Positions 9,095-59,229 of a DNA stretch of 64,000 nt are shown here, piece after piece; positions within the stretch are counted from its first letter, which is position 1, and each line of letters begins with the position of its first letter. The notes under the pieces are model-generated. The model was not told the DNA's origin. It saw only the letters and a program-made list of their open reading frames with translations, and did no database searches. The translations under genes and the position numbers were made by a program. Location: NCBI GenBank assembly GCA_036555665.1, contig DATBKW010000373.1, positions 1,898 to 65,897 on the forward strand, written 5' to 3'. Source of the DNA: Solirubrobacteraceae bacterium. Its GTDB lineage: Bacteria > Actinomycetota > Thermoleophilia > Solirubrobacterales > Solirubrobacteraceae.

Positions 9095-10432
9095 TCACGA
9101 CGACGGCGCGATCGCCTCGTTCATGCGGCGCTCGATGTCGAGCTCGCGGTCGAAGTCGGCCTCGTCGGCGTGGCGGTACTCGGTGCCGCGTCCGGCGAGC
9201 AGATCGGCGAGCGCCTCGACGTACGTCGCGTCGAGCTGCGAGCCGGCGACGCGCCGAAGCTCGTTGAGGGCCTCGAACGAGTTCATCGGCGTCCGATACG
9301 TGTCCGGGGCGGTCAGGGTGTCGTAGACCTCGGCCACCGCGACGACGCGAGCGATCGCGGGGATCTCGTCGCCGTGCAGCCGCTGGGGGTAGCCGCGGCC
9401 GTCGATGCGCTCGTGATGGGCGCGCACGATCTCGGCGACCGGGCCGTAGACGCCGATGTCGCGCAGCAGTTCCGCGCCGATGTCCGGGTGGCGCCGGATG
9501 CCGCGCCAGTCGGCCTCCGCCAGGCGCCCGCCGCGCTCCATGACGCGGTCCGAGAGCGCGAACTTGCCGATGTCGTGCAGGAGGCCGGCGGTATGGGCGA
9601 GCTCCTGGTCGCGCTTGGACATGCCGCAGTGCTTGGCGATGTCGCGCGAGAACGCTGCGACCGCCGCGCAATGGCGCGCCGCGCGCGAGTCGCGCTCGTC
9701 GAGGGTGCGGATGAGTCCCGAGAGGACGCCCCAGGAGAGGTTCGCGTACTGCCGCGTGCGCTCGCGCGCGACGATGACGAGGCGCGCCATGTAGGAGAAC
9801 GCGATCACGTTGAGCAGCACGAAGACGAGCGCCAGCAGTCCCAGCTGGTCGTAGATGCCGGCGATGACCGCGACCAGTCCGACGTTGAGCAGGACGGCTG
9901 GGAACGTCGCCAGCGCGCCGCGGATCGTCCCCAGGACCGACTTGCCGTCGAGGAGGGCGAACGCCGTCGACGCGAACAGCAGGTTCACCGCCATCGTTCC
10001 CGTCGCCACGAGCGCGAGCACGGCGATGAACTCGAAGCTGTCGCTGGGTGGATCGATCGCCTCGAAGAGGAACGCCGCCAGCATCACCGGCGTCGCCGAG
10101 CCCGCGATGTTGATCAGCAGCGCCTGCCAGCGGTAGCGGTCGACGATCCACACGCCGACGTAGGAGATCGTGGGCACCCAGAAGGCGGCGACGGGGCCCA
10201 GGAAGGCCACAGCGAGCATTGCCGCAAGGAAGGCCGCCGACAGCGTCAGGGTGGGCGCGTGCCGGGCCGCGATAAGCTCAGCGACCAGGGCGCATACCGC
10301 CAGGACGACTGCTAAAGGCTTGACTAGCGGCGACCAGGACGACATCGTCAGCCCTACGACCCCGACGCAAACGACGACGACCGCAAGCGTCATCGCGAGC
10401 ACGGGACGCCCCCGAGGCTGGGCCTCCGTCAT
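9095..10432 (-). CDS. Multi-pass membrane HD-GYP domain protein (probable c-di-GMP phosphodiesterase)
   Basis: 445 aa. About 7 N-terminal TM helices, then 'LLHDIGKF', 'HPDIGAELL', 'HHERIDGRGYP' (HD-GYP signature). The true start may be an internal GTG ('VLAMTL'). Confidence 0.8.
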   Translation of the reverse strand: MTEAQPRGRPVLAMTLAVVVVCVGVVGLTMSSWSPLVKPLAVVLAVCALVAELIAARHAPTLTLSAAFLAAMLAVAFLGPVAAFWVPTISYVGVWIVDRYRWQALLINIAGSATPVMLAAFLFEAIDPPSDSFEFIAVLALVATGTMAVNLLFASTAFALLDGKSVLGTIRGALATFPAVLLNVGLVAVIAGIYDQLGLLALVFVLLNVIAFSYMARLVIVARERTRQYANLSWGVLSGLIRTLDERDSRAARHCAAVAAFSRDIAKHCGMSKRDQELAHTAGLLHDIGKFALSDRVMERGGRLAEADWRGIRRHPDIGAELLRDIGVYGPVAEIVRAHHERIDGRGYPQRLHGDEIPAIARVVAVAEVYDTLTAPDTYRTPMNSFEALNELRRVAGSQLDATYVEALADLLAGRGTEYRHADEADFDRELDIERRMNEAIAPSS

Positions 10433-10661: not shown

Positions 10662-11561
10662 GTGCGCACGCTGAAGACCTCCGAGGCTGCCGCGGTGCTC
10701 AACGTGAGCCCGAATACGCTCCGCGCGTGGGAGCGCCGTTTCGGCTACCCCAAGCCGCAGCGGACCGCCGGCAAGCATCGGCTCTACACACACGGCGAGG
10801 TCGCCGCTCTGCGCGACGCCCTGCAGGAAGGGCTTTCGATCTCGTCCGCAATCTCGCGTGCGCGCGAGTCGCTGAGTTCGGACACGAGCACGCTGGTCGG
10901 CGCCTTGCAGGCCTTCGAGCTCGACCGCGCGGATGCCGCGATGGAGGCGGCGCTCGCGCTGCGCTCCGTCGAGCGCAGCGTCGAGGAGGTCCTGCTGCCG
11001 TCGATCCGCGAGATCGGCGAGCGCCACGGCTTCGACTCGGCGCCCTGGGCCTTCGCCGCACGCTGGGCCACCGACTGGCTCCAGCGCGCCCAGCGGATGG
11101 CGCCGCCGCCGACGCGGCCGACCGCGATCCTGGTCGGCGACGCCACGCGCGACGACCTCGATCCCGACGCGCTGGCCCTCAAGGCGCTCCAGCTCTTCGC
11201 CGTCCGCTCCGGGGCGCGCGTGCTCGTCCTGCCGATCACCGGCGTGGCGGGCCTGAACGAGGTGCTCGGAGCGTTCGCGCCGCAGGTGGTCGTCATCGCC
11301 GGGGCTCACGCCTCCGATGACGACGTCGCACGCTGGGCCTACCGCGTCCGCTCCGCCAGCGGCGCACTGCCGATGGCGCTCTACCGCCGCGGCGGCCGCG
11401 CCGACGCCGCCCGCACGACCGCGCGCACCCTCCCGGATTCCTCCGGCGAGGCGCACCGCATCGTCCTTGACATTCTCGATGGCCGGCCGCGGGGGATGGC
11501 CGCTCCGGCTGACGACCACATCGACCAGCCGGACACCAGCCGCCAGGTGAAAGCTTCGTGA
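10662..11561 (+). CDS. MerR-family regulator with CarH/CarA-like C-terminal (B12-binding-like) module, paralogue A
   Basis: 299 aa, GTG start. HTH 'LNVSPNTLRAWERRFGYPKPQRTAGKHRLY'. Helical bundle 'LLPSIREIGERHG...'. Rossmann-like 'AILVGDATRDD...ARVLVLP...VVVIAGAH'. Confidence 0.75.
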   Translation: MRTLKTSEAAAVLNVSPNTLRAWERRFGYPKPQRTAGKHRLYTHGEVAALRDALQEGLSISSAISRARESLSSDTSTLVGALQAFELDRADAAMEAALALRSVERSVEEVLLPSIREIGERHGFDSAPWAFAARWATDWLQRAQRMAPPPTRPTAILVGDATRDDLDPDALALKALQLFAVRSGARVLVLPITGVAGLNEVLGAFAPQVVVIAGAHASDDDVARWAYRVRSASGALPMALYRRGGRADAARTTARTLPDSSGEAHRIVLDILDGRPRGMAAPADDHIDQPDTSRQVKAS

Positions 11562-12055: not shown

Positions 12056-12176
12056 CCAGCGGCGACATCGCCCGTCGCGGTCACCGGCCGCGGTCCTGCG
12101 TGTGCAAGGAAACGCCCAGGCTGCAGCAACGCTTGCCGACGTTGCGCAAACCTCACCAACGCTCGATACATCGCGC

Positions 12177-13040
12177 ATGGGCGCGATCCGCACCAACGCC
12201 GCTGCGGCCATGCTCGGCGTCAGCCCCAACACGCTGCGCTCCTGGGAGCGGCGCTTCGGGTTCCCCGAGCCGCAGCGCACCGCGGGCGGCCATCGCCAGT
12301 TCGACCTCTCGGAGATCGAGGCGCTGCGCAGCGCCTTCGAGGAGACGCACAACATCTCCTCGGCGGTCGCCCTCGCGCGCGAGCGCGGCGCCGGGCCCGC
12401 CACGCCGTCGCGCCTGCGCAGCGCGTTTGCGCGTTACGACGAGGTCGACGCCGATCGCGTCCTGGAGGAGAGCCTTGCCGTGCGCTCTGTCGAGCGGACG
12501 GTCGAGGAGGTGCTCCTGCGCGGCGTCGAGGCGCTCGATCCCACGGGCCCCGAGTACGGCTTCGCGTGGCGGTGGGCGACCGGATGGCTGGCGGCGGCGA
12601 TGCGGGTCGCCCCGTCGGCGACGCGCGCGGACGGCGTGCTCGTCTTCGATGCCAGCGCGCCGTGCGACCTCGATGCTCTGCACGCGCAGGCGTTGGAGCT
12701 ATGCCTGCGCCGCCGCGGGCTGCGCACGCTGACGCTGACCGTGGCGCTGGACCCCAGCCGCATGGGTCGCGCGTTGCACGCGCTCGCCCCGCGCGCGGTC
12801 GTGCTCACCGGCCGCCGCGCATCGCTCGACGGCCTCGGGCGCCTCGTGTATGCGGCGCGCAGGATCGGTGGCGACGGCGTCGCGATCTACGACTTCCGCG
12901 GTGCGCTGGGCGCGACGGGCGCGACCACCGTGCCGCGGCTTGGCGACGCCCCGCTGGCGGCGTGCGAGCAGCTCGTCGAGGACCTCGACGGCGGTGCGCG
13001 GGCTCAGCGGCCCGAGCTGATCGCGGTCGGTCGCTACTGA
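12177..13040 (+). CDS. MerR-family regulator with CarH/CarA-like C-terminal module, paralogue B
   Basis: ATG at 12177 within track ORF 12102..13040. HTH 'LGVSPNTLRSWERRFGFPEPQRTAGGHRQF' is nearly identical in pattern to paralogue A, with the same downstream architecture. Confidence 0.75.
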   Translation: MGAIRTNAAAAMLGVSPNTLRSWERRFGFPEPQRTAGGHRQFDLSEIEALRSAFEETHNISSAVALARERGAGPATPSRLRSAFARYDEVDADRVLEESLAVRSVERTVEEVLLRGVEALDPTGPEYGFAWRWATGWLAAAMRVAPSATRADGVLVFDASAPCDLDALHAQALELCLRRRGLRTLTLTVALDPSRMGRALHALAPRAVVLTGRRASLDGLGRLVYAARRIGGDGVAIYDFRGALGATGATTVPRLGDAPLAACEQLVEDLDGGARAQRPELIAVGRY

Positions 13041-22808: not shown

Positions 22809-24560
22809 ATGGGCGAGCGCCTCATGACCGACCCACCCTCCAATGCCACCATCGCCGCGCTGTTCGACGAGCTCGGCGACCTCTACGAGCTCGACGGCGC
22901 GGTGGTCCACCGCGTGGTCGCCTACCGCAACGCGGCCAAGTCCGTCCGCGAAGCGCCGCGCTCGGTCGCCGCGATGGCGCTCGACGGCAAGGTCACGCAG
23001 CTGCCCGGGATCGGCCGCACCCTCGAGGAGAAGATCCTCGCGCTGATCGAGACCGGTTCGATCCCCGCGGTGGAGAAGCTCCGCGCCAAGTTCCCGCCCG
23101 GCCTGATCGACCTCACGCGCCTGCCAGGCCTGGGCCCCAAGCGCGCGCGCAAGCTCTTCGACGAGCTGGACATCGACTCGCTCGACGCCCTGCAGGCCGC
23201 GGCCGAGGAGCACAGGCTGCGCGACGTGCGCGGCTTCGGCGAGAAGTTCGAGGAGACCGTCCTCGCATCGCTGGCCGCCGGCGCGGGCGACGCGCCGCGC
23301 GAGCGCGTCCTGCTCAGCAAGGCGCTCGAGATCGGCGACGCCATCGTCGACGCCCTGCGCGCGCATCCCGCCTCCGACCGTGTCCAGCTCGCCGGCTCGG
23401 CGCGGCGGCTGACCGACGCGGTCAAGGACCTCGACATCATCGCCACGGCGTCCGACCCCCCGGCGCTGCTGGCCGCCTTCGCCGCGCTGGACATCATCGA
23501 GACCGCCTCGTCGCCCGGCGAGAACGCCGCCCGGGCGCGCACGCATACCGGCGTGTCGATCGACATGCGCGTCGTCGAGCCCGACCAGTTCGGCAACCTC
23601 CTGCAGCACTTCACGGGCTCCAAGGAGCACAACATGGCGCTGCGCGAGGCGGCCGTGCGCCGCGGCCTGCACGTCTCGGAGTACGGCCTGCTCGACGACT
23701 CCACCGGCACGACGCACCGCTGCGCGACCGAGGAGGAGGTCTACGGGCTGCTCGGGCTGCCGTGGATCCCGCCCGAGCTGCGCGAGAACCGCGGCGAGCT
23801 GGCGCTGCGCAACGGCCAGGTTCCCGCGCTCGTCGAGCACGCTGACCTCAAGGGCGACCTGCACATGCACACGACCCTCAGCGACGGGCGCAACAGCGCC
23901 GAGGAGATGGCGCTGCGCGCGCGCGAGCTGGGCCTCGCGTACATCGCGATCACCGACCACTCGGCCTCGCACGGCTTCGGCAACGACGTCTCGCCCGATG
24001 CTCTGAAGAAGCAGATCGAGGAGATCCGCGAGCTCGACGAGCGCATCGAGGGCATCCGCGTGCTGATCGGCACCGAGACGAACATCGGCACCACCGGCAG
24101 TCCCGACTACGACGACGACCTGCTCGCGCAGCTCGACTGGGTGATTGGCTCGGTGCATACGTCGTTTGCCATCGGCGCCGACGCGATGACCGACCGCATC
24201 GTCGCCGCCATCGAGCACCCGCTCATCGACGCCATTGGCCATCCGACCGGCCGCAAGATCACGCGCCGCGCGCCCTATGCCGTCGACCTCGACCGCGTCA
24301 TCGACGCCGCGGCCCGCACGGGCACGATGCTCGAGATCAACTCCGCGCCCGACCGCCGCGACCTCAACGACGTCAACGCGCGCAACGCCGTCCAGGCCGG
24401 GGTGCGCATCATCGTCAACTCCGACGCGCACGGCGCCGAGACGCTCATCCACACCCGCTGGGGTGTGGCCACCGCGCGCCGCGCATGGCTGACGAAGGCC
24501 GACGTCGCCAACACGCTGCCCTGGACGAAGTTCGCCAAGCTCAGGAAGCGCGCGCGCTGA
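22809..24560 (+). CDS. polX: Family X DNA polymerase with C-terminal PHP domain (PolX)
   Basis: 583 aa. HhH motifs 'LPGIGRTLEEKI' and 'LPGLGPKRARKL', Pol-beta nucleotidyltransferase 'GSARRLTDAVKDLDIIA', PHP 'GDLHMHTTLSDG...ITDHS...NSDAH'. Confidence 0.85.
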   Translation: MGERLMTDPPSNATIAALFDELGDLYELDGAVVHRVVAYRNAAKSVREAPRSVAAMALDGKVTQLPGIGRTLEEKILALIETGSIPAVEKLRAKFPPGLIDLTRLPGLGPKRARKLFDELDIDSLDALQAAAEEHRLRDVRGFGEKFEETVLASLAAGAGDAPRERVLLSKALEIGDAIVDALRAHPASDRVQLAGSARRLTDAVKDLDIIATASDPPALLAAFAALDIIETASSPGENAARARTHTGVSIDMRVVEPDQFGNLLQHFTGSKEHNMALREAAVRRGLHVSEYGLLDDSTGTTHRCATEEEVYGLLGLPWIPPELRENRGELALRNGQVPALVEHADLKGDLHMHTTLSDGRNSAEEMALRARELGLAYIAITDHSASHGFGNDVSPDALKKQIEEIRELDERIEGIRVLIGTETNIGTTGSPDYDDDLLAQLDWVIGSVHTSFAIGADAMTDRIVAAIEHPLIDAIGHPTGRKITRRAPYAVDLDRVIDAAARTGTMLEINSAPDRRDLNDVNARNAVQAGVRIIVNSDAHGAETLIHTRWGVATARRAWLTKADVANTLPWTKFAKLRKRAR

Positions 24561-25521
24561 GCAGGGCCGGCAGCAGCTCGTCGCGCACCGCCGCGTCGGC
24601 GGCCGCACGGCGGTAGGGCGCGATCGTCTGCAGCGCGCGCTCGGCGTAACCGGCCGGCGGGTCGTCGAGCGCCGCGCGCAGCGCGCCGCCGAGGTCGTCG
24701 GAGACGAACCGCGGGTCAAGAACACGCGCGACCGGCAGCGCCGCATACGGGCCCGGCGCCGCCGTGGTCACCAGCAGGCAGCCGTCGGCGAGCGCCTCTA
24801 GCTGGGCCACGCCGTAGTCCTCGCGCCGCGGCGCGGTGACGAACACGCGCGCGCGGCGCAGCAGCGCCCGATAGGCGGCCGGCTCGAGCGGCCCAGTCGA
24901 GCGCACGCCGTCGGCGCGGGGTACGCGGTCGGTCCCCGTGACCACGAGCTCCTCGTCCGGCCGCCGTGCGGCCGCCCACGCGGCGAGCACGCGGTCAAGC
25001 CCCTTCTTCGAGGGGTTGGCGGCGTAGGTGATCGCCGCGATGTCGCGTTGCGCAGCCGCCGGGCCCGACGGCTCGACGGGTATCGGCACGACGACGGCCC
25101 GCGCGCGCGGCGACGGCGACTCGTCGAGCGTCCCCGGCGCCTGGGGAACGAGCAGCGGCGCCTCGCGCAGCCGGCGGCGCTCGAGCGAGCGCTGCCAGAT
25201 GCCGTGGCGGCCCGGGCGGTTACCGGCCGCCGGGGCGTCGTAGCGGATCGCGCCCGCCCGCGGCCAAAGCAGCGCCGCGGTGACCGTGCAATAGACGATC
25301 GCCCGCGGCCGGTGCTCGGCGATCCCGCGCTGCGCCGCCACCCGCGCCGCGCGCGCCCAGACGAGGTCGGTCAGGGCCAGCGTGCGGACCTCGCGCGGCG
25401 CGCGTGCCGCGACGACCGCCGCGCCGGCCCCCGCGCGTTGCATGGCGCCCGCCAGCTCGGCGTCGGCCGCGCGCAGGCCCGCGGTCGAGCCGAGCGAGAC
25501 CACAAGGATGTCGGTGGCCAT
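24541..25521 (-). CDS. Glycosyltransferase (GT-B, GT4-like)
   Basis: ATG at 25521 in track ORF 24541..25929. C-terminal 'ARVFVTAPRREDYGVAQLEALADGCLLVTT' carries an E-x7-E type motif. Confidence 0.65.
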   Translation of the reverse strand: MATDILVVSLGSTAGLRAADAELAGAMQRAGAGAAVVAARAPREVRTLALTDLVWARAARVAAQRGIAEHRPRAIVYCTVTAALLWPRAGAIRYDAPAAGNRPGRHGIWQRSLERRRLREAPLLVPQAPGTLDESPSPRARAVVVPIPVEPSGPAAAQRDIAAITYAANPSKKGLDRVLAAWAAARRPDEELVVTGTDRVPRADGVRSTGPLEPAAYRALLRRARVFVTAPRREDYGVAQLEALADGCLLVTTAAPGPYAALPVARVLDPRFVSDDLGGALRAALDDPPAGYAERALQTIAPYRRAAADAAVRDELLPALLSARAS

Positions 25522-26060
25522 CAGCCGGTGCCGCTGCCGTTGACCGACGTCAGCGTCGGCACCTCGCGGCGGAAACCGGGGGTGCGCACGAGCTGGATCG
25601 GGCGGATCGGCGACGTGCGCTCGACGTAGTAGGTCACCCCGTCGCGCTCCTCCACCGCGAGCACCGCCGCGTCCTGGCGCCGCCAGGCCAGCGACCAGAT
25701 GATCGCGAAGCCGCACGCCACCGCGGGCACCTGCGCGAACAGGAAGCCGATTGCGCCGGCGGCCACCGTGGAGAGCAGCAGCGGCCAGAGGCGGTTGAGG
25801 ACGACCGCGCCCGGGCGGTGCTCGGGGAGCATCGTGGCCACCTTGGCGTCGGCGAGCAGGCGCCCGATCGAGACCGTGACCTGCGCGCGGCGGCCCAGCG
25901 CGATGCCGATGATCGAGGCGGCGACCCACCAGCCGGCGGCGATAAGCACGAGCGTGTTGTTGTTCTCGCCCGTCGCGGCGATGACCGTGATGATCGCGAG
26001 CATCGTCGCCGCGCCCGCGCTGAGCATGACGGTGCTCTTGAGCAGGTCGACGAAGCGCAC
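25521..26060 (-). CDS. Small integral membrane protein, unknown function
   Basis: GTG at 26060, 7 nt after the otsB stop. About 4 TM helices plus a soluble tail. Its stop overlaps the downstream ATG by 1 nt (TGATG). Confidence 0.5.
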   Translation of the reverse strand: MRFVDLLKSTVMLSAGAATMLAIITVIAATGENNNTLVLIAAGWWVAASIIGIALGRRAQVTVSIGRLLADAKVATMLPEHRPGAVVLNRLWPLLLSTVAAGAIGFLFAQVPAVACGFAIIWSLAWRRQDAAVLAVEERDGVTYYVERTSPIRPIQLVRTPGFRREVPTLTSVNGSGTG

Positions 26061-26067
26061 TGCCGGG

Positions 26068-26871
26068 CTATGCCGCCAGCGCCGATAGCAGCGTGCGCAC
26101 GCCGACCGGCCCTTCGACGAGCAGGTCGGCCTGGGCCTCGAGCTCGGCGGGCGTCTCGTCGGAGCGCACGCCCACGCACAGGGCGTACTCCAGCTGCCCC
26201 TCGCTCGCCCGCCGGCGCAGGCTCTCGAAGGCGTCGACGTCGGTGCTGTCGTCGCCCACGTAGACCGCGCTGGTGATCGCCGTGCCCTCGAGCAGACGCT
26301 CGACGCCGCGGCCCTTGTTGAGCTCGACCGGTGGGCGGACCTCGAGCACCTTGCGCCCCCAGTGCACGACCAGGCCGTCCGCCTCGGCCTGCTGCGCGAG
26401 GTCGCGGACGGCAGCCTCGGCCGTCGCCTCGTCGGGTGCGCCGCGCCAGTGATAGGCGCGGATGACGTCCTTGTCCTCGGCGCGCACGCGCAGGCGGTGC
26501 AGGCGGTCGCTCCAGGCCTCGCGGGCCCACTCGTCGATGCGCCGCGACCACGCGGCGACCTCGGGGTCGACCTCGATCTCGGTGGCGCCGCCGCGCAGGA
26601 CCTCCGCGCCATGGTTGCCGACGTAGGTGATCGAGCCCAGCGACACGATGCGCCGTGCCGTCGTCGCCCGCCGTCCGGTGACGCAGGCCACCAGGCCGTA
26701 GCGCTTGGCCACCGCGATGAGCGGAACGCGCGTGGGCTCGGGCACGTGGGCGTCGTCGGCGTGGCGCACGATCGGCGCCAGCACCCCGTCGACGTCGAGC
26801 AGGATCGCGCTGTGTCGCGGATCGGCCCGCAGGGGCTCGATGTGCTCGGCCAGTGTCGCGGCAGCGGACAC
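26068..26871 (-). CDS. otsB: Trehalose-6-phosphate phosphatase (HAD superfamily)
   Basis: 267 aa. HAD motif I 'LLDVDGVLAPI', motif II 'CVTGR', motif IV 'YVGDDSTD'. 'HWGRKVLEVRP' is typical of OtsB. Confidence 0.75.
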   Translation of the reverse strand: MSAAATLAEHIEPLRADPRHSAILLDVDGVLAPIVRHADDAHVPEPTRVPLIAVAKRYGLVACVTGRRATTARRIVSLGSITYVGNHGAEVLRGGATEIEVDPEVAAWSRRIDEWAREAWSDRLHRLRVRAEDKDVIRAYHWRGAPDEATAEAAVRDLAQQAEADGLVVHWGRKVLEVRPPVELNKGRGVERLLEGTAITSAVYVGDDSTDVDAFESLRRRASEGQLEYALCVGVRSDETPAELEAQADLLVEGPVGVRTLLSALAA

Positions 26872-26915
26872 GAACCTAGTATGCCGACGATTCTGCGCGG
26901 CGGATTACCGGCGGC

Positions 26916-27680
26916 CTACGCGTGCAGCCGGCGCCGCAGGGCGGCGACGTTGCGGCGCGCCACCGGGATCTCGGTGTCGTCGCGCATGATGAGCACGGCG
27001 GTGCCGTTGAGCTGCGCGCGCAGCTCGACCGCGTGCTTGAGATTGACGAGATAGGCGCGGTGTACGCGGGCGAAGCCGCTGGCGCCCCAATCCTTCTCGA
27101 GCTGGCTGAGCGGCGTGCGCAGCAGGAAGCGCCCGTCCTCGCAGACGATGCGCGCGTAGTCGCCGTTGGCCTGGGCGAAGGAGATCGTCTCCAGGCGCAC
27201 GAGCCGCTTGCCGCCGCCCTTGGGGTTGTCCACGGCGACGACGTCGGGGCCCGCCGCGGCGCCCTCGGAGCCGTCGGCCGAGGGGCCGCCCTTGGCGGCC
27301 TCGGTGCCGCGGACGTGCTGCTCGACGCGCGTGAGCGCCGACTCCAGCCGTTCGCGCGTCACGGGCTTGACCAGGAAGTCCAGGGCCTGGACCTCGAAGG
27401 CCTCGACGGCCGCGTCGGGGTGGCCGGTGAGGAAGACCACCGCCGGCGGGTCGGCGAACCGCCGCAGCAGACGGGCGAGGGCCATGCCCTCGATCTCGGG
27501 CATCGCGACGTCGAGGAAGAGCGCGTCGTAGCGCCCGCCCGACAGGAAGACCAGCGCCTCCTTGGCCGAGGTCGCGGTGGCGACGCGCTCGACCGAGGCC
27601 GAGGTCTCCAGCAGCCGCTTGATGTCGGTGAGCGCCCGCGGCTCGTCGTCCACGGCCAGGATCGCCAGGCCAGAGCTCAT
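26916..27680 (-). CDS. Response regulator, REC + LytTR DNA-binding domain
   Basis: 254 aa. 'ILAVDDEP', phospho-acceptor context 'DALFLDVAMPEIEG', 'FLVKP', LytTR 'ISFAQANGDYARIV...VHRAYLVNL'. Confidence 0.85.
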   Translation of the reverse strand: MSSGLAILAVDDEPRALTDIKRLLETSASVERVATATSAKEALVFLSGGRYDALFLDVAMPEIEGMALARLLRRFADPPAVVFLTGHPDAAVEAFEVQALDFLVKPVTRERLESALTRVEQHVRGTEAAKGGPSADGSEGAAAGPDVVAVDNPKGGGKRLVRLETISFAQANGDYARIVCEDGRFLLRTPLSQLEKDWGASGFARVHRAYLVNLKHAVELRAQLNGTAVLIMRDDTEIPVARRNVAALRRRLHA

Positions 27681-28192
27681 GCCACCCCCTCCGCGGTCGT
27701 CGGCCCGAGCGGGATCCGCACCCGCTCGCCGGGCTCGCCCGGCTCGTCGGGCCGGTCGAGCTGCAGGTCGAGCGCGCCGTTGCGCGCCCGCAGGGCCAGG
27801 CGCACGCGGCCCGGATGCTGCCCCAGCCAGCGGTTGAGCGCCTCGCTCAACGGCGCCTGCACCTCGCCGGGGGCGAGCTGCGCTGCCGGCAGGTCCTCCG
27901 CCGCGGGCAGCTCGGCGTCGATGCGCCCGGGGAAGCGCGCCTGTTCGAGGCGCAGGTACACGCCGACGTGTTCGAGCTCGTCGGCCGGCGCCACGGTCCG
28001 CGGACCGCGCAGGCGATGGGAGAGGAACGCGCCCAGCTCGGCGAGGACGTCACGCGCCGTGTCGGGGTCCTCTTCGATATAGCTCGCGGCGGCTGCCAGC
28101 ACGTTGTTGATGAAGTGCACGGAAACGGGCTCGACGCCCGCGGGGTGCCCTGGTATTCGCTGATCCAAGCCGAATAACCTCCTTGTGGGCAC
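27677..28192 (-). CDS. Sensor-less LytS-type His_kinase (PF06580-like) mini-protein with truncated ATPase domain
   Basis: 163-171 aa. Starts at GTG 28192, or at TTG 28168 which lies 9 nt after AAGGAGG. H-box 'VSVHFINNVL', 'ELEHVGVYLRLEQARF', N-box-like 'LSEALNRWLG', then ends after 'LDRPDEPGEPG'. Its stop overlaps the RR start (ATGA). Confidence 0.6.
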   Translation of the reverse strand: MPTRRLFGLDQRIPGHPAGVEPVSVHFINNVLAAAASYIEEDPDTARDVLAELGAFLSHRLRGPRTVAPADELEHVGVYLRLEQARFPGRIDAELPAAEDLPAAQLAPGEVQAPLSEALNRWLGQHPGRVRLALRARNGALDLQLDRPDEPGEPGERVRIPLGPTTAEGVA

Positions 28193-28325
28193 ACCTTAAC
28201 CGTGCCCGCGGTCCCCTTCCGCTTGTCTGTTCGATGGTGCCGTTCGGCGCTCGGACTAGGCTGACGGCTCGCGGGCACGTGGCGGTGAAACCGCACCGGG
28301 TCTACCCTCGACGCTGGCGGCGAGG

Positions 28326-30986
28326 ATGAGCATCCATCAGGACACCCCACCCGAGGCGGTCTTCGTCGATCGCCTGGCGGACGCCTTCCGCGATGCCGCG
28401 CTGGGCATGGCGTTGCTCGCGCCGAACGGGACGTTCCTGCGCGCCAACGAGACGCTGTGCCACCTGGTCGGGCGCAGCGAGGACCAGCTTCGGCGCGAGG
28501 GGCTCGCCGACGTCGTCGACGACGCTCGGGTCACCGAGGCCCTGGCCGCCGCCGAGCCGTCGCTGCAGATCGAGGCGCCCATGCGCCACAGCGAGGGCCG
28601 CCCGGTCGTCGGTCTGGTGACCCTCACGCTCGTGCGCGGCGAGCACGGGGCGCCGCAGTGCTACGTCTGCCAGGTCCTCGACATGACCGAGCGCCACGAG
28701 GCGCAGGCGCGACTGGTCGCCAACGAGGCCAAGCTCGCCGAGGCCCAGCAGATCGCGCGGCTGGGCTCCTGGGAGTGGGAGATCGCCACCGATCAGGTCA
28801 CCTGGTCGGCCGAGCTGTACCGCATCTACGGCGTGACGCGTCAGGACGCGCCGCACTCCTACGGCGCCTACCTCGGGAAGGTCCATCCCGACGATCGCGC
28901 GCGCGTCGCGCGCGTCATCGAGACCGCGCTGACCGAGCGTAGGTCGTGGAGCCTCGACTACCGCATCGTGCGCCCCGACGGCGAGCAGCGCATGATCCAC
29001 GCCCGCGGCGAGATCGTGCTCGACGGCGAGGGCGGTCCCACGACCGTCCGTGGGACCTGCCAGGACGTCACCGAGAATCGCCGGGTCGAGGACGCGCTGC
29101 GTGCCGCCGAGCAGCTGTTCCGCCGTGCGTTCGACGACGCCCCCATCGGCATGGCGCTGATCGACCTCGACGGCCGCTGGCTGCGGCTGAACCGCGCGCT
29201 GTGCCAGATGCTCGGGCGCACCGAGCAGGAGCTGCGCACCACCGAGCTCAACGACCTCAGCCATCCCGACGACCGGCGCCTCGATCTTCCCCTCACCAAG
29301 GAGCTGCTGGCCGGCCGCCGGCGCTCGTATGCGATCGAGAAGCGCTATCTGCGCGCCGACGGCAAGATGGTCCACGCGCTCCTGCACGTCTCGCTCATGC
29401 ACGGCGACGGCGAGCGCCCGCTGTACTTCCTCTGCCAGATGGTCGACGTGACCGAGCGCCGCCGCGCGCAGGCCGAGCGCCAGGCCAGCGAGGAGCGCCT
29501 GCAGGCGATCATCGACAACTCGCCGGCGCTGATCATCGTCAAGGACCTCGAACATCGCTACCTGCTGGTCAACCGCCGCTGGGAGGAGCTCTTCGGCGTG
29601 CCGTCCGAGCAGGCGATCGGACGCACGTCGGCGGAGGTCCTGCCCGCCACCCGACGGCCCGACCACCTCGCGATCGACGAGCGCGTCAGCGTCACCGGCG
29701 AGCCCTACGAGGCGATGATGGTCATCCCCGAGCCCGACGGGCAGGACGAGCGGACCTTCCTGATGGTCAAGTTCCCGCTGCGCGACGTCGACGGCAACAT
29801 CTCGGCGGTCGTCACCATCGCCACCGACATCACCGACCGCCGGCGCAGCGCCGAGGAACGCGCCGAGCTCGAGCATCGCCTCGCGCAGGCGCAGCGCCTG
29901 GAGAGCGTCGGCCAGCTCGCGGGCGGGGTCGCGCACGACTTCAACAACCTGCTGTCGGTCATCCTGACCTGCGTCGGGTTCGCCAGCCGCGAGCTGCCCG
30001 CCGATCATCCCGTCCGTGACGACGTCGAGGAGATCGGGCGCGCCGCCGATCGCGCCGCGGCGCTGACGCGCCAGCTGTTGATGTTCAGCCGCCGCGAGGT
30101 CGTCAAGCCGGAGGTGCTCGACGTCGGCGGCCTCGCGCGCGACCTCGAGCGCCTGCTCAATCGCACGCTCAGCGAGCGGATCGCGCTGCGGATCACCGTC
30201 GGCCCCAATCTCGTCCCGGTGCTGGCCGACCGCGCCCAGCTCGAGCAGGTTCTCATCAACCTCGCCGTCAACGCCCGCGATGCCATGCCCGAGGGCGGCA
30301 CGCTGGCGATCGCGGTCGGGCGCGTGGCCGACGGCGTGCGCATCACCGTCGCCGACGATGGCCTCGGCATGCCCGAGGAGGTGCGCGACCGCGCCTTCGA
30401 GCCGTTCTTCACCACCAAGGACCCGGGCGAGGGGACGGGCCTGGGCCTCGCGACGGTTCACGGGATCGTGACCGACTCGGGCGGGACGGTCGACATCGAG
30501 TCGACGCCCGGTCAGGGCACCGTCGTGACGATCTTTCTTCCGGGCTGCCGGGAGGCGGTGCGCCCGGCCGAGCCGCCGGCCGAGCCCGGCGAGCGCGCGG
30601 CGACCGTGGCGCGCGTGCTGGTCGTCGAGGACCAGGAGCCCGTGCGCCGGCAGGCCTGCCGCATCCTCGAGGCCCACGGCTACGAGGTCACCGGCGCGGG
30701 CGCGGCGGAGGAGGCGCTCGAGGGCTGGCAGCCGGTCGACGTGCTCGTCACCGACATCGTCATGCCGGGCATGACCGGCCAGCAGCTCGCCCAGATCGCG
30801 ACCGAGCGCAACCCGGACCTGCGCGTGGTCTACATGTCCGGCCACACCGAGGACGTGCTCGTCCGAAACGGCGCGCGGGCGCGCCACATCGCGTACCTGC
30901 AGAAGCCGTTTACGCGCGCAAGTCTTCTGCGCGCGGTCGAGGACGCGCTGACCACCGCCCCCGCGGACATCACAGCCGAGCGGTAG
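28326..30986 (+). CDS. Hybrid sensor histidine kinase: about 4 PAS + HisKA + HATPase_c + receiver
   Basis: 886 aa. PAS-like segments (for example '[15 protein letters not shown]', '[16 protein letters not shown]', '[15 protein letters not shown]'), H-box '[11 protein letters not shown]', N-box '[10 protein letters not shown]', G1 'DDGLGMP', G2 'GTGLGLA', REC 'VLVVEDQ...[10 protein letters not shown]...LQKPF'. Confidence 0.85.
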
Positions 30987-31153
30987 CCGCCCGACTGGCC
31001 GGCGTCGCCGCCGGTCGCGGGCCGATCGCCGCGCGTCGACGGCCGCTGTGCCCTTTGGTGCGAGCGAGCAAGCATGCGGGCGTCGCGGCGGGCTCGACTA
31101 GAGGCTTTCGCCTGCGGTGCCCCTACCCCCCGGGCTCCGTGGCCCACCGCCTA

Positions 31154-31180
31154 GGCGCCGGTGCCCCCAACACCGGCGCC
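31154..31180. terminator. Perfect 10-bp GC hairpin between convergent genes (candidate bidirectional terminator)
   Basis: GGCGCCGGTG-cccccaa-CACCGGCGCC followed by the TTAAGTTAAGG palindrome (31179-31191). Confidence 0.5.
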
Positions 31181-31232
31181 TTAAGTTAAGGGGCCACTCG
31201 CGGCCGCTCGGTCCGAGCGCGGCCGCTCGCGA

Positions 31233-32117
31233 TTACGGACCGCTCGGCACACCGTGCTCGAGCGCGCCCTTCACAGCCGCGTCGACCGCGTTCAGCCGAT
31301 AGAGCGCGAGCGCCTCGGGCGTGGCCGGCCGGCGGTCGCCGTGGTGCGTGAGCACGCAGTGGGCGAGGGCGAGGCGCCGTGGCTCGTCGAGCGGCGCGGC
31401 GCGTTCGTCGAGCATGCGCAGGCCGAGTTCGACGTGGCCGAGCAGGCGGCCCTCGTCGGTCAGCCCGATCTCGGCGCCGAGCGCGAATTCGCGCGTCTTG
31501 CCGAGGTCGTGAACGATCGCCGCGGTCAGCAGCAGGTCCTGGTCCAGACGCGGGTGCAGCGTGCACGTCTCGACCGCGAGGGTGGCGACGGCGACGGTGT
31601 GCTCGAGCAGCCCGCCGAGGTAGGCGTGGTGGCCGTTGCGCGTGCACGGCGTTCGCCGCAGCGCGGCGCGCACCTTCGGGTCGGCGAGGAGGTCGTCGAC
31701 GAGCGCCTTGAAGGCGGGGTCGCGCAGCTCGCCGGCCAGGTGCTCGAGGAAGCCGTCGAGCTCGTCGAGGTCGCGGTAGGCGACCGGCAGGAACGCGGCC
31801 GGGTCGGCATCGTCGGCGCGCGCGATGGTGCGGAGGTCGAGCTGCAGCTCGTCGCGGAAGCGCTCGACGCGCCCGGCGATGCGCACGAGGTCGCCCTGCT
31901 CGAAGCGGCCGGCGTACAGGTCGGCGTCGCGGAAGACCCGCGCGGGGATCGCCCCGGTGCGGTCGCGCAACTCGAGCGCGAGGTAGGCGGTGCCCGTGCG
32001 CGCGATCAGGCGATCCTTGCGCGTGCAGGCGAAGACGCCGCTGACCTCGTCGCCCGCGCGCATCGTCGCGACTGCAATGGGCTGGGCCGGGACGGCGTGA
32101 AGCTCTGCAGAACGCAC
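31233..32117 (-). CDS. OB-fold + HD-domain protein (YhaM-like 3'-5' exoribonuclease family)
   Basis: GTG at 32117 chosen (alternative ATG at 32063). OB region 'GTAYLALELRDRTGAIPARVF', HD region 'HHAYLGGLLEHT...IVHDLGK'. Confidence 0.7.
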   Translation of the reverse strand: MRSAELHAVPAQPIAVATMRAGDEVSGVFACTRKDRLIARTGTAYLALELRDRTGAIPARVFRDADLYAGRFEQGDLVRIAGRVERFRDELQLDLRTIARADDADPAAFLPVAYRDLDELDGFLEHLAGELRDPAFKALVDDLLADPKVRAALRRTPCTRNGHHAYLGGLLEHTVAVATLAVETCTLHPRLDQDLLLTAAIVHDLGKTREFALGAEIGLTDEGRLLGHVELGLRMLDERAAPLDEPRRLALAHCVLTHHGDRRPATPEALALYRLNAVDAAVKGALEHGVPSGP

Positions 32118-32142
32118 GAACCCATGATGTACCGTGGAGCGG

Positions 32143-33024
32143 ATGCAGCCCCTCATCTGGGAGCATCGCCCGGACGGTTTGCGGGCGCCGGCGCTCGTTT
32201 GTGCGTTCACCGGCTGGAACGACGCCGGAGACGCCGCATCGGCCGCGCTGCAGTTCCTCGGCTCGTCATTGGCAGCCACCCGCTTCGCGCGCATCGACCC
32301 GGAGGACTTCTACGACTTCCAGGCCACGCGGCCGAAGATCAAGCTCGTCGAGGGGCGCACCCGGCAGATCGAGTGGCCCGAGGTCGAGATCTACGAGGCG
32401 CGCATCCCGCGAGCTCCGCGCGATCTGGTCTTGCTGCAGGGCGCCGAGCCATCGATGCGCTGGCGCAGCTTCTGCCGGTTGATCGTCGACCTCGCCGAGG
32501 CGATGGGGACGCAGATGGTCGTCACCCTCGGCGCGCTCCTGGCCGACGTGCCGCACTCGCGGCCGGTGCCGATCACGGGCCTGTCCTCGGACGAGGGGCT
32601 CGTCCAGCGCGTCGGGCTGTCGCCGTCCTCCTACGAGGGCCCGACGGGGATCGTCGGCGCGCTGCACGCCGCCTGCCAGGAGGCCGGCATCCCGACCGCG
32701 TCGCTGTGGGCCTCGGTGCCCCACTACGTGGCCGCCGCCCCCAACCCGAAGGCCGCTCTGGCGCTGGTGCGCAAGCTCGAGGGCCTGATCGGCGTGTCGG
32801 TCGACGCCGGCGAGCTCGAGAGCGCCGCGGCCGACTACGAGCGCCAGGTCTCGCTGGCGGTCCAGAGCGACCCCGACGTGCAGGCCTTCGTCGAGCGGCT
32901 GGAGCAGGCCGCCGAGGAGGAGGAGCCGGACATGAGTCCGCAAGATCTGCCGAGCGGCGACTCGATCGCGCGCGACTTTCAGCGGTTCCTGCGGCAGCGG
33001 GGGCCCGACGCGCCGGGGCCTTGA
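32143..33024 (+). CDS. PAC2 (proteasome assembly chaperone 2-like) family protein
   Basis: ATG at 32143 (alternative GTG at 32134). 'PALVCAFTGWNDAGDAAS' and 'YEGPTGIVGAL' are characteristic of actinobacterial PAC2-family proteins (from memory). Confidence 0.7.
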   Translation: MQPLIWEHRPDGLRAPALVCAFTGWNDAGDAASAALQFLGSSLAATRFARIDPEDFYDFQATRPKIKLVEGRTRQIEWPEVEIYEARIPRAPRDLVLLQGAEPSMRWRSFCRLIVDLAEAMGTQMVVTLGALLADVPHSRPVPITGLSSDEGLVQRVGLSPSSYEGPTGIVGALHAACQEAGIPTASLWASVPHYVAAAPNPKAALALVRKLEGLIGVSVDAGELESAAADYERQVSLAVQSDPDVQAFVERLEQAAEEEEPDMSPQDLPSGDSIARDFQRFLRQRGPDAPGP

Positions 33025-56971: not shown

Positions 56972-57706
56972 ATGCAAGGGCAGGCTTCGAGCCCACGCAT
57001 CTCGCGCTGGGGCGTCGTCGTCACGGTTTCGGCGGTCCTGGTCCTCGGCGGCGCAGCGGCCCTGCTGATCGCCAGCGTCACCTCCAGCCACGAGCGGATG
57101 GTCTCCTTCGCCGTGCGTGGATCGCTGAACGGCGTCGCGCTCGACGTCGGCGATGGCGACGTCGTCATCGCCGGCGGCGGCCAGCGTCCCCAGCTCGAGG
57201 TCCAGCGCACCGACCGCTACGCCTTCGGCCACGATGCCGACGTGCAGCGCACGGTCTCCGGCGGCGAGCTGAGCCTGCGCGCGCGCTGCCCGTCCACGCT
57301 CCCGCAGGGATGCTCGGTCCGCTACCGCCTCATCGTGCCCGACAACGTGCCGGTCACTGTCCGCACCTCCGGCGGGAAGGTGAGCTTCAGCCGCTACCGC
57401 GGCTCGGCGCGCGTGACGACGCGCAGCGGCGACATCGACATCGGGGCGTTCTGCGGCTTCTCGCTGGAGGCGCGCGCCGAGAGCGGCGACATCGCCGCGA
57501 GCACCGCGTGCGCGCCGCAGGAGCTGTCGCTGCGCTCGACTTCCGGATCCGTGCACGCGTCGGTGCCCGCGGGCCGCTACCGAGTCGAGGCCGAGAGCGC
57601 ATCGGGCACCCATGAGGTGCGCGGCGTGGCCGCCGTCGCCGACGCCCCCTTCTCGATCCAGGCCCTCAGCAGCTCCGGCGACGTGCTCGTGGAGGGCCGC
57701 CAGTGA
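56972..57706 (+). CDS. DUF4097-like (LiaG-like putative adhesin) membrane-anchored protein
   Basis: ATG at 56972. TM 'WGVVVTVSAVLVLGGAAALLIA'. Repeated 'GDVVI / GGKVSF / SGDIDI / SGDIAA / SGSVHA / SGDVLV' beta-helix pattern. Confidence 0.65.
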   Translation: MQGQASSPRISRWGVVVTVSAVLVLGGAAALLIASVTSSHERMVSFAVRGSLNGVALDVGDGDVVIAGGGQRPQLEVQRTDRYAFGHDADVQRTVSGGELSLRARCPSTLPQGCSVRYRLIVPDNVPVTVRTSGGKVSFSRYRGSARVTTRSGDIDIGAFCGFSLEARAESGDIAASTACAPQELSLRSTSGSVHASVPAGRYRVEAESASGTHEVRGVAAVADAPFSIQALSSSGDVLVEGRQ

Positions 57707-59229
57707 TCGCGTCCCTCGAGCTCGATCGCCGTATCGAGCGCGCCGGGCGCGCCCTGGCCTACCTGGCCATCAATGTGCCGATCGCGATCCTCGGCGCGCT
57801 GTCCGTCGTGGCGCTGGTGCTGGGGGCGGCGCTGAGCATCGCTGTCATCGGCCTTCCGCTGCTGATCGGCGCGGCGGCGGCCTGCCGCTGGCTCGTGCGC
57901 GTCGACCGCCGCGCGGCCAACCGCTTCCTCGACCTCCACATCCCGCCGATCGCGGCCGCACCGCCGCGCTCCGCCGCCGGCGGCCCGTGGCGCCGCTCGC
58001 TGGCCATCCTGTCCGACCGCGGGCTGCTGCGGATCGTCACCCTGCTGGCCACCAAGCCGTTGGTCATCGCGGTCCTCGTCGGCGTCGGGCTCGTGCCGGT
58101 CGTCCTCATGGCTGTGCTGATCCTCCTCGGCGTGCAGGGTGTCGGCAGCGTGGGCGGGGTCGACTACTTCGGGCCCTGGAGCCTCGGGGTCGGCACGGGG
58201 CTCGTGCTCCTTGCGCTCGCGCTGCCCGCGGCGGTGCTCGTCGTGGCGACCTTCGACGCCCTCCACGTCGTGCTGTCGACGATCGGCCGTTCGCTGCTCG
58301 CCCCGCGCTCGCCCGACAGCGGCCCGGTGCGCGAGATGCTGGCCGAGAGCCTGGGCGACAGCTCGGTCGCCATCGCCTATTGGCTGCCCGATCGCGAGAC
58401 GTTCGTCGACGAGGCCGGCCATCCGATCGAGCTGCCGCAGCCGGGCAGCGGGCGCGCGTGGACGGCGGTCGAGCGCGACGGCCGCCGGGTGGCCGCGATC
58501 GTCCACGACGCGGCGCTGGACACGAGCAGCGAGCTCGTGCAGGCCGCCGCCGCGGCCTCGTCGCTGGCCATCGACAACGAGCGCCTGAAGGCCGACCTGC
58601 GCGCGCGCGTGGCCGAGCTGCGCGTCTCGCGCCAGCGCATCGTCGAGGCCGCCGACGAGGCGCGCCGGCGCATCGAGCGCGACCTGCACGACGGCGCCCA
58701 GCAGCAGCTGCTCGCGGTCGCCCTCGAGCTGCGCGTCCTGCGCTCGCGCGTCAACGGCGACGACACGGTCGCGCTCGTCGACGGGCTGGCGCAGCGGCTC
58801 GACGTCGCGCTCGGCGAGCTGCGCGAGCTCGCGCGCGGGATCCACCCGGCGCTGCTGACCCAGAGCGGGCTCGGCCCCGCGATCGGGTCGCTGGTCGAGC
58901 GCTCGCCCGCTCCCGCGCAGGCCGAGGTGACCGTCGACGAGCGCCTGCCCGCGCCGATCGAATCGGCCGCCTACTTCGTCGTGGCCGAGGCGCTGACCAA
59001 CGTGGCGCGCTACGCGCAGGCCGAGCGGGCGGACGTCGAGGTCCGCCGCGACGGCGACGAGCTGCTCGTCCTCGTGGCCGACGACGGCGTCGGCGGCGTC
59101 GACGTCGGCTCGGGCAGCGGTCTGCGCGGGCTCCAGGACCGCCTGGCCGCCGTCGACGGCACGCTGCGCATCGACAGCCCGCACGATGGCGGCACCCGGC
59201 TGGAGGCACGGATCCCGTGGCCCGCGTGA
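57703..59229 (+). CDS. Membrane sensor histidine kinase, HisKA_3 (NarX/LiaS) class
   Basis: 508 aa. GTG overlaps the upstream stop. N-terminal TM 'sensor' region, H-box 'RRRIERDLHDGAQQQLL', N-box 'EALTNVARYA', 'ADDGVGG', 'GSGLRGLQDRL'. Confidence 0.8.
   Translation: MIASLELDRRIERAGRALAYLAINVPIAILGALSVVALVLGAALSIAVIGLPLLIGAAAACRWLVRVDRRAANRFLDLHIPPIAAAPPRSAAGGPWRRSLAILSDRGLLRIVTLLATKPLVIAVLVGVGLVPVVLMAVLILLGVQGVGSVGGVDYFGPWSLGVGTGLVLLALALPAAVLVVATFDALHVVLSTIGRSLLAPRSPDSGPVREMLAESLGDSSVAIAYWLPDRETFVDEAGHPIELPQPGSGRAWTAVERDGRRVAAIVHDAALDTSSELVQAAAAASSLAIDNERLKADLRARVAELRVSRQRIVEAADEARRRIERDLHDGAQQQLLAVALELRVLRSRVNGDDTVALVDGLAQRLDVALGELRELARGIHPALLTQSGLGPAIGSLVERSPAPAQAEVTVDERLPAPIESAAYFVVAEALTNVARYAQAERADVEVRRDGDELLVLVADDGVGGVDVGSGSGLRGLQDRLAAVDGTLRIDSPHDGGTRLEARIPWPA

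Follow-up and report, generated by a model that had tools for sequence, protein, structure and literature searches.

A truncated LytS-type 'half kinase' linked to a hybrid histidine kinase and a LytTR regulator in Solirubrobacterales: a candidate kinase-derived phosphotransferase

Hybrid histidine kinases are abundant, and many of them have no identifiable histidine phosphotransfer (Hpt) partner. To our knowledge, only three phosphotransferases derived from histidine kinases have been characterised, Spo0B, ChpT and PhyT, and each of them is hard to recognise from sequence. Here we describe a three-gene module found in a 64,000-nucleotide (nt) stretch of DNA from a Solirubrobacteraceae bacterium (GCA_036555665.1, contig DATBKW010000373.1, positions 1,898-65,897, forward strand; hereafter the window, from whose first letter positions are counted). 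In this module, a protein of 163 amino acids (aa), hereafter the mini-protein, combines the hairpin of a LytS-type kinase with a cut-off remnant of its catalytic domain, and its gene lies between those of a hybrid kinase and of a LytTR-type response regulator. The comparative evidence inclines us, with modest confidence, to see the three genes as one module working as a four-step phosphorelay, in which the mini-protein would serve as a phosphotransferase in the manner of Spo0B, ChpT and PhyT. The three genes are:

28326-30986, plus strand: hybrid histidine kinase, 886 aa (Pfam: four PAS domains, HisKA, HATPase_c and a receiver, REC)

27677-28168, minus strand: mini 'half kinase', 163 aa, TTG start, with PF06580 as its only Pfam match; a LytS-type hairpin followed by a cut-off catalytic remnant

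26916-27680, minus strand: REC-LytTR response regulator, 254 aa (Pfam: REC, E 4.9e-23; LytTR, E 1.3e-21)

The known kinase-derived phosphotransferases provide the nearest points of comparison. ChpT of Caulobacter crescentus, which acts as part of the CckA-ChpT-CtrA/CpdR pathway, consists of a hairpin carrying the shuttling His and of a Bergerat-like domain that is unable to use ATP (PMC3433190). The mini-protein likewise joins a hairpin to a Bergerat-like remnant and, in our proposal, would be fed by a hybrid kinase of PAS-HisKA-HATPase-REC architecture that is CckA-type by its best NCBIfam match. However, by sequence the two proteins are unrelated (PF06580 is the family matched by the mini-protein, and not PF10090), and whereas ChpT keeps a complete domain of five strands and three helices with a remodelled lid, the domain of the mini-protein stops after the G1 position. 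The output regulators differ as well, being of the OmpR type (CtrA) for ChpT and of the LytTR type here, as do the hosts, an alphaproteobacterium and a Thermoleophilia actinobacterium, respectively. Spo0B of Bacillus subtilis (KinA-Spo0F-Spo0B-Spo0A) is a degenerate kinase acting as a dimeric phosphotransferase, with a four-helix bundle formed by two hairpins and a non-catalytic C-terminal alpha/beta domain (PMC3433190, PMC5898713). The mini-protein is similar in having a hairpin, a C-terminal domain predicted to be non-catalytic and, as proposed, a dimeric state; Spo0B, however, belongs to PF14689, which finds no match in the mini-protein, receives its phosphoryl group from the stand-alone receiver Spo0F and delivers it to Spo0A. 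PhyT of Sphingomonas melonis, formerly PhyP, has a degenerate ATPase domain, is encoded beside its target regulator and shuttles phosphate from a receiver to that regulator via a conserved His, although it was first read as a phosphatase (PMC5898713). Degenerate ATPase domain and position beside the regulator gene are shared by the mini-protein, to which the same ambiguity between phosphatase and phosphotransferase applies. Differently from PhyT, which has a dimerisation and histidine phosphotransfer (DHp) domain of the HRxxN type, a membrane anchor, a periplasmic domain and a single-domain regulator as donor, the mini-protein is apparently soluble, LytS-type and far more reduced.

Two other classes of proteins also have to be considered. 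With the kinases LytS, YehU (BtsS) and AlgZ the mini-protein shares a homologous PF06580-type DHp domain, which can be aligned by hhalign over 146 columns, an adjacent and translationally coupled REC-LytTR gene, and a candidate direct-repeat operator. In contrast to these kinases, it lacks a membrane sensor, the N-box Asn, both the G1 and the G2 box and the lid; some 50-60 residues are missing from its C-terminus, and its input apparently comes from a separate hybrid kinase. Monomeric Hpt proteins (PF01627; ArcB-Hpt, LuxU, Ypd1) provide the functional parallel, a His relay between the receiver of a hybrid kinase and a terminal regulator, as is proposed here; in fold and family they are unrelated to the mini-protein, whose fold matches the DHp-catalytic cores of kinases.

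The mini-protein divides into a retained hairpin and a reduced catalytic domain:

27929-28129, minus strand: DHp-like hairpin, residues 14-80 (PF06580, E 2.8e-10), with H-box SVHFINN and the His18 codon at 28117-28115

27698-27928, minus strand: remnant of the catalytic (Bergerat) domain, residues 81-157, modelled by AlphaFold2 as a strand, the N-box helix, two strands and a final strand

The PF06580 match scores 40.8 bits (cut-off 25.2). As an earlier reading of the same DNA, made from its letters and open reading frames (ORFs) and called here the sequence-only reading, had predicted, HATPase_c (PF02518) finds no match in the mini-protein, even at E<=1 in Pfam. The Pfam families of Spo0B (PF14689) and ChpT (PF10090) gave no match at E<=1, nor did Pfam match Hpt (PF01627), and the NCBIfam models were without a match. 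The phosphoacceptor side of the protein is strongly conserved: the His is found in 102/102 sequences, and is kept in proteins of as little as 35% identity, Asn22 is present in 101/102, and the helix that carries the His, HF[VI]NNVLAAAASYIEEDP, is almost invariant even at 50% overall identity. In the C-terminal half, P143 is the only position that is nearly invariant across the diverse family, and the Asp of LDRPD is conserved among close relatives.

The AlphaFold2 model, calculated from a 16-sequence alignment (pLDDT 81.6, pTM 0.76), shows a variable and disordered N-terminus of 16 residues (pLDDT ~39), followed by helices 17-33, 35-53 and 61-78 (pLDDT ~90), a strand, a helix at 104-117 and three further strands, without a lid; the catalytic remnant is thus modelled as folded (pLDDT ~90), with four strands and one helix. 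No membrane or sensor segment was detected in the mini-protein, which starts only 17 residues before its His. Foldseek against the PDB returned DHp-catalytic cores of histidine kinases, the best being LytS-type GanS (6swj, E 6.5e-5), also the only PDB match by sequence; ChpT (4fpp) and DivL were among the matches. Canonical LytS kinases have their N and G1 boxes where the mini-protein has LSEALNRWLG and LDRPDEPG, as the sequence-only reading had described (an H-box, an N-box-like segment and a G1 remnant, then the stop), but a MAFFT alignment with these kinases refines the description: of all mini-proteins examined, P0131 alone keeps the Mg-binding Asn of the N-box (LVENA), and the DxGxG of the G1 box (DDGxG) is replaced by (D)RPDEP. 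In the hhalign comparison of the mini-family with canonical LytS kinases (probability 99.8%, E 2.2e-29), columns 17-163 correspond to columns 145-290 of 352 and the match thus ends just past G1; the 62 canonical columns beyond, which comprise the G2 box (GIGLxNV), the lid, the last helix and the terminal strands, have no counterpart. By these comparisons the mini-protein is a LytS-type kinase core minus its ATP-binding half, and we infer from sequence and model that it would be unable to bind ATP.

The ORF at 27677-28192 on the minus strand encodes 171 aa from a GTG codon and 163 aa from TTG 28168. The upstream elements are:

28178-28184, minus strand: Shine-Dalgarno sequence AAGGAGG, 9 nt before the TTG, conserved in close relatives

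28193-28198, minus strand: -10-like hexamer TAAGGT (family consensus TAnnGT), located in conserved columns, 19 nt downstream of the second repeat described below

Both the divergent ORF and the ribosome-binding site before its TTG had been pointed out in the sequence-only reading and stand as described. The TTG is taken to be the true start, because the homologues are 163 aa long and the conserved -10-like element overlaps the alternative GTG; for the same reason the longer ORF from GTG 28192 was rejected, and the true ORF is no longer than had been assumed. N-terminal extensions, as in P0121-P0123, were also rejected as the true form of the mini-protein, their N-termini not being conserved. 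Between the mini-gene and the ATG of the divergent hybrid kinase gene lie 157 nt if the TTG is taken as the start and 133 nt if the GTG is, and the stop of the mini-gene overlaps the start of the regulator gene in GGCATGAGC (ATGA, 27677-27680), an overlap already noticed in the sequence-only reading.

A search of 5.8 billion proteins yielded 484 homologues of the mini-protein, from Solirubrobacterales; the best 120 of these 484 show 71-92% identity, are almost all exactly 163 aa long and have PF06580 as their only domain. A profile search of 1.84 billion cluster representatives gave ~30 clusters at E<1e-20 (clusters taken at 50% identity), most with members of 110-210 aa, and below this level returned ordinary full-length LytS-type kinases. 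The short matches P0162-P0245 resembled additional mini-proteins but were rejected, since their N and G1 boxes are intact and they represent fragments or frameshifts of canonical kinases. The Terriglobia loci L019-L024 were likewise rejected as family members, as they encode canonical LytS kinases of 446-474 aa. In the JGI annotations the 163-aa homologues carry the names 'LytS/YehU family sensor histidine kinase' or 'sensor kinase LytS'. Judged by domain content, this naming is a systematic over-annotation, since neither a sensor nor an ATPase domain is present.

Against five relatives, the ratio of nonsynonymous to synonymous substitution rates (dN/dS, Nei-Gojobori) was 0.14-0.24 for the whole mini-gene, 0-0.075 for the helical hairpin, which is as constrained as the regulator gene (0.04-0.07), and 0.18-0.49 for the C-terminal half; as third-position G+C is near 95%, the absolute values are uncertain and it is their ranking that is informative. 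By this comparative measure the mini-gene is a real gene under purifying selection. A pseudogene or truncated fragment was rejected on account of the length of ~163 aa that has been kept, a dN/dS below 0.25 and the conserved Shine-Dalgarno and -10 elements.

The divergent gene encodes a complete hybrid kinase, and the domains that the sequence-only reading had assigned to it (about four PAS domains, a complete HisKA/HATPase core and a C-terminal receiver) were all recovered by Pfam, and the H-box and the receiver Asp quoted there are present in the sequence:

28326-29909, plus strand: sensor region with four PAS domains, residues ~1-528 (PAS_4, PAS, PAS_3 and PAS_9 each match 2-4 stretches)

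29910-30098, plus strand: HisKA dimerisation and phosphoacceptor domain, residues 529-591 (Pfam), with the His537 codon at 29934-29936

30228-30542, plus strand: complete HATPase_c, residues 635-739 (PF02518, E 2.4e-25, profile positions 2-108 of 111)

30615-30938, plus strand: C-terminal receiver, residues 764-871 (Pfam Response_reg), with the Asp810 codon at 30753-30755

No transmembrane segment was found in the hybrid kinase, and no Hpt domain by Pfam; by prediction it is a soluble, cytoplasmic protein. Among NCBIfam models it fits those of the CckA type best (E 1.3e-114), though under the equivalog cut-off. CckA-type intermediary receivers carry the motif FxSGY (PMC9981736), which the beta4 motif of the receiver found here, YMSGH ([YF]MSGH across loci), resembles. 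The kinase His is conserved in 39/39 loci and the receiver Asp in 31/32 by count, the single exception being a one-residue alignment shift. In the regulator, BtsR/LytR-like by NCBIfam but below its cut-off, Asp57 (codon 27512-27510) is conserved in 82/83 sequences, the exception having an in-frame stop. The apparent phospho-site exceptions across all loci are three: an alignment shift, a frameshift and the sequence with the in-frame stop.

How strictly the three genes belong together was examined in 14 Solirubrobacterales genomes, 67 metagenome contigs and contigs from an exact-protein look-up, which gave 85 distinct loci. The nearest relatives of the window, which has a G+C content of 73%, are metagenome-assembled genomes of Solirubrobacterales (Thermoleophilia, Actinomycetota). 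A divergent PAS/hybrid kinase gene is present in 49 of the 50 loci with at least 900 bp upstream, and a REC-LytTR gene in all 69 with at least 400 bp downstream, in line with the sequence-only reading; the other computational checks suggested there also gave the expected outcome. Insertions (ACT, peptide deformylase, TauE) occur on either side of the trio and never inside it. The trio is part of a larger block, syntenic in Solirubrobacterales, of PAC2, HD/OB protein, kinase, mini-gene, regulator, trehalose phosphatase and PolX genes.

Window positions 22809-33024, compared with loci L001 and L029, show this order-wide synteny in full: PolX, a glycosyltransferase, a 177-aa membrane protein, trehalose phosphatase, the regulator, the mini-gene, the hybrid kinase, an HD/OB-fold protein and a PAC2 protein. 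The lineage-specific insertions in this region (a TauE pair, ACT, DUF554) fall outside the trio.

One rearranged form of the module was found. At L033:3284-5921 and L034:2195-4832, the genes for a mini-protein, a REC-LytTR regulator and a PAS-HATPase-REC kinase are co-directional and joined by 4-nt stop/start overlaps. The mini-protein of this operon, P0160 (143 aa), has the motif HTVNN and 36% identity, and its regulator and kinase show 50% and 40% identity, respectively; the kinase, of 487 aa, has the same type of H-box and an intact receiver. The flanks of the operon (AzlD, a metallophosphatase, an ABC-2 permease) are unrelated to those of the divergent arrangement. In the P0146 lineage, seen on a metagenome contig, the divergent partner kinase has lost its PAS domains and consists of 319 aa with HATPase_c and REC; its gene is 22 bp from the mini-gene, and the pair adjoins ACT and peptide deformylase genes. 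In addition, there is a sister branch of lidless LytS-like proteins with an N-terminal membrane anchor, L028:452-1899 (P0149) and L032:469-1802 (P0150), whose gene precedes a REC-LytTR gene and whose divergent neighbours are acetyl-CoA synthetase and GPR1/FUN34/YaaH (acetate channel) genes; by its sequence and neighbours this branch may represent a different use of the same truncated core. Searches seeded with P0160 and P0150 returned only these proteins themselves or a handful of short contigs.

The DNA between the divergent genes, whose conserved non-coding part is at 28193-28260 (minus strand), contains a further element:

28218-28248, minus strand: direct repeat pair, candidate LytTR site, with GCCGAACGGC at 28248-28239 and GACAAGCGGA at 28227-28218, 21 bp from start to start

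Direct repeats with such spacing are the usual operator geometry of LytTR regulators. The pair overlaps the -35 position of the mini-gene promoter, with the -10-like element and then the Shine-Dalgarno sequence following it, and an alignment of 23 orthologous intergenic regions shows that the repeats are conserved across relatives in which the flanking non-coding DNA has diverged (family consensus about C[GA]RRCGG(C)). The degenerate repeat pattern matches once in the window versus 0.45-1.8 matches expected by chance, a count that is not significant alone, and the case for a LytTR site therefore rests on conservation. The AlgR box has been described as CCGTTCGTC (PMC4064291), and the reverse complement of the repeat, CCGTTCGGC, matches it at 8/9 positions. 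The repeat pair is thus probably a LytTR operator through which the regulator autoregulates its own operon, and the divergent kinase gene is possibly under its control too.

The relay that we favour would proceed as follows. The soluble PAS hybrid kinase would autophosphorylate on His537 from ATP, and the phosphoryl group would move to the kinase's own receiver, at Asp810. His18 of the mini-protein, probably a homodimer forming a four-helix bundle, would then take it from Asp810 and hand it to Asp57 of the regulator, which in turn would bind the direct repeat pair lying upstream of the operon of mini-gene and regulator, resulting in autoregulation, and would presumably control further targets too. 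The relay may also run in reverse as a phosphate drain. In evolutionary terms, one may envisage an ancestral LytS/LytTR pair whose kinase lost its membrane sensor and its ATP lid, while its DHp domain was kept as a specificity adaptor coupling the LytTR regulator with a kinase from a different family. This proposal is suggested, first, by the pattern of what has been kept and lost: the parts of the mini-protein that would dock to receivers and carry a phosphoryl group persist, and those for sensing and for using ATP are gone. Second, the only consistently linked protein with an input and ATP-using part is the hybrid kinase, whose receiver is always intact and which has no Hpt. Third, LytTR regulators, as far as we know, pair with kinases of the LytS/PF06580 or AgrC type and not with HisKA kinases; since the LytS-type DHp is their normal partner, the DHp retained in the mini-protein would be the natural docking partner of the regulator, and the near-invariance of its His helix fits a surface that serves two partners. 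Finally, there are three precedents for degenerate kinases acting as phosphotransferases, one of which, PhyT, was at first misread as a phosphatase.

Several observations weigh against such a relay. For the Spo0B-like role, already proposed in the sequence-only reading, the support is comparative only, each transfer step, the dimerisation of the mini-protein and the binding of the regulator to the repeats being inferred. The receivers of hybrid kinases are often regulatory domains and not relay intermediates. This also weakens one part of the sequence-only reading, in which an Hpt protein was said to be normally required by a hybrid kinase; as to the other part, Pfam found no Hpt match in the three module proteins and the 18 other window ORFs scanned, although a 64-kb window is silent on what the genome encodes elsewhere. 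Vertical inheritance accounts, on the evidence of gene order, for most of the 49/50 co-occurrence, because the larger block is itself syntenic within Solirubrobacterales. There is only one independent rearranged case, P0160, which counts as a single observation since it is a singleton cluster seen on two contigs, and no hybrid kinase is visible near P0149 and P0150, whose contigs are shorter than 2 kb. The Asn at His+4 is reportedly needed for the phosphatase activity of LytS, as judged by mutagenesis, and would fit a phosphatase role equally well. In addition, AlgZ has been described as lacking the G1, F and G2 boxes and is nevertheless treated as the kinase of AlgR (PMC4064291). Loss of recognisable G boxes is thus, from this precedent, not proof of a dead kinase in the LytS family; note, however, that AlgZ keeps a full-length domain and the N-box Asn, unlike the mini-protein.

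That the mini-protein is no phosphate carrier, and acts on the LytTR regulator as a phosphatase dedicated to it or as a modulator that binds it, seems unlikely to us. The regulator would in this case be phosphorylated directly by the DHp domain of the hybrid kinase, by another kinase or by acetyl phosphate, the DHp domain of the mini-protein would do no more than reset it, and the receiver of the kinase would serve as an internal sink or as a regulatory domain. The strong constraint on the DHp domain, with an HFxNN motif that is invariant including the Asn at His+4, would suit such a function, and the acetyl-CoA synthetase and acetate channel genes beside the membrane-anchored lidless relatives would fit regulators fed by acetyl phosphate. 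However, the His is invariant too, yet the phosphatase reaction of many kinases needs no His; the strict linkage of the three genes, which includes the rearranged operon, and the receiver Asp that is always kept in the kinase would be left unexplained; and direct pairing of a HisKA kinase with a LytTR regulator would be unusual. The former name of PhyT, PhyP, reflects a phosphatase proposal for a similar degenerate kinase, but PhyP itself proved to be a phosphotransferase (PMC5898713). Were the mini-protein a phosphatase only, it would still be an unusual one, consisting of a stand-alone DHp domain.

Quite improbable, in our judgement, is an atypical autokinase, using ATP or another donor, that forms an ordinary pair with the LytTR regulator, the hybrid kinase being separate or loosely connected. 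It is true that AlgZ, of the LytS family, was reported without identifiable G1, F and G2 boxes and that atypical nucleotide binding was suggested for it (PMC4064291), that the catalytic remnant of the mini-protein is modelled as folded and is under purifying selection, and that close relatives keep the Asp of LDRPD. However, the domain stops at column 290 of the 352 canonical columns and has none of the elements that would close a nucleotide pocket (lid, G2 box, last helix, last strands), and the Mg-binding Asn of the N-box is replaced in nearly all members examined. As the protein begins 17 residues before its His and has no sensor domain, an autokinase of this kind would be without input, whereas the linkage of the three genes and their operon form argue that it is the hybrid kinase that supplies it. 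Repurposed kinases which sense a regulator without phosphotransfer, such as DivL, one of the Foldseek matches, together with the fast evolution of the C-terminal half (dN/dS up to 0.49), might suggest a protein without any phosphoryl chemistry, which would bind the regulator or the hybrid kinase as a pseudo-kinase scaffold or as an anti-activator, or else a decaying fragment, but we give this very little credence: decay is excluded by the ~163 aa length in hundreds of homologues, by dN/dS below 0.25 and by the conserved Shine-Dalgarno sequence and promoter, and an invariant His and NN motif would be unexpected in a pure scaffold, DivL having a Tyr in place of the His.

Returning to the phosphorelay, the proposed role of the mini-protein is not a new principle, as degenerate kinases acting as phosphotransferases are already known. 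In the absence of a PF14689 or PF10090 match, its origin, if it is a phosphotransferase, would be independent. We give about even chances to the broader claim that a histidine kinase has here been turned into a His phosphotransferase for the fourth time independently, with no earlier case from the LytS/PF06580 family and none so reduced (a hairpin and half a Bergerat fold), that the resulting multistep phosphorelay is the first known to end on a LytTR regulator and that, by extension, small 'incomplete' kinases annotated as LytS/YehU sensor kinases could be the phosphotransfer partners lacking for some of the many hybrid kinases without an Hpt. Full-text searches, with most subscription journals outside their coverage, found neither a LytS-type domain described as a phosphotransferase nor a phosphorelay with a LytTR regulator as its end point; the existence of 'incomplete' kinases, which lack one of the two domains, is all that a 2026 preprint mentions. 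If the relay is real, a LytS-derived case would show that the route from kinase to phosphotransferase is a recurrent one, and that a DHp domain alone can persist as a specificity adaptor, by which regulators, here of the LytTR class, come under the control of a kinase from a different family. It would also correct the annotation of hundreds of database entries named 'LytS/YehU family sensor histidine kinase'. Since all three proteins appear soluble and a candidate operator has been defined, direct tests of the system in vitro are possible.

We also would like to point out some other genes of the window. The separate membrane sensor kinase encoded at 57703-59229 (plus strand; PF13796 Sensor, HisKA_3 and HATPase_c) is of an ordinary type and has no relation to the module. 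The minus-strand gene at 9095-10432 encodes a protein of 445 aa, a possible cyclic-di-GMP phosphodiesterase, whose N-terminus is hydrophobic and which ends in an HD_5/HD domain of HD-GYP-like type. This gene is followed on the plus strand by two neighbouring genes for MerR-family regulators (10662-11561 and 12102-13040), with a 165-aa ORF between them that shows a weak zinc-ribbon match; the first of the two regulators has a weak B12-binding_2 match and may be CarH/LitR-like and light-responsive.

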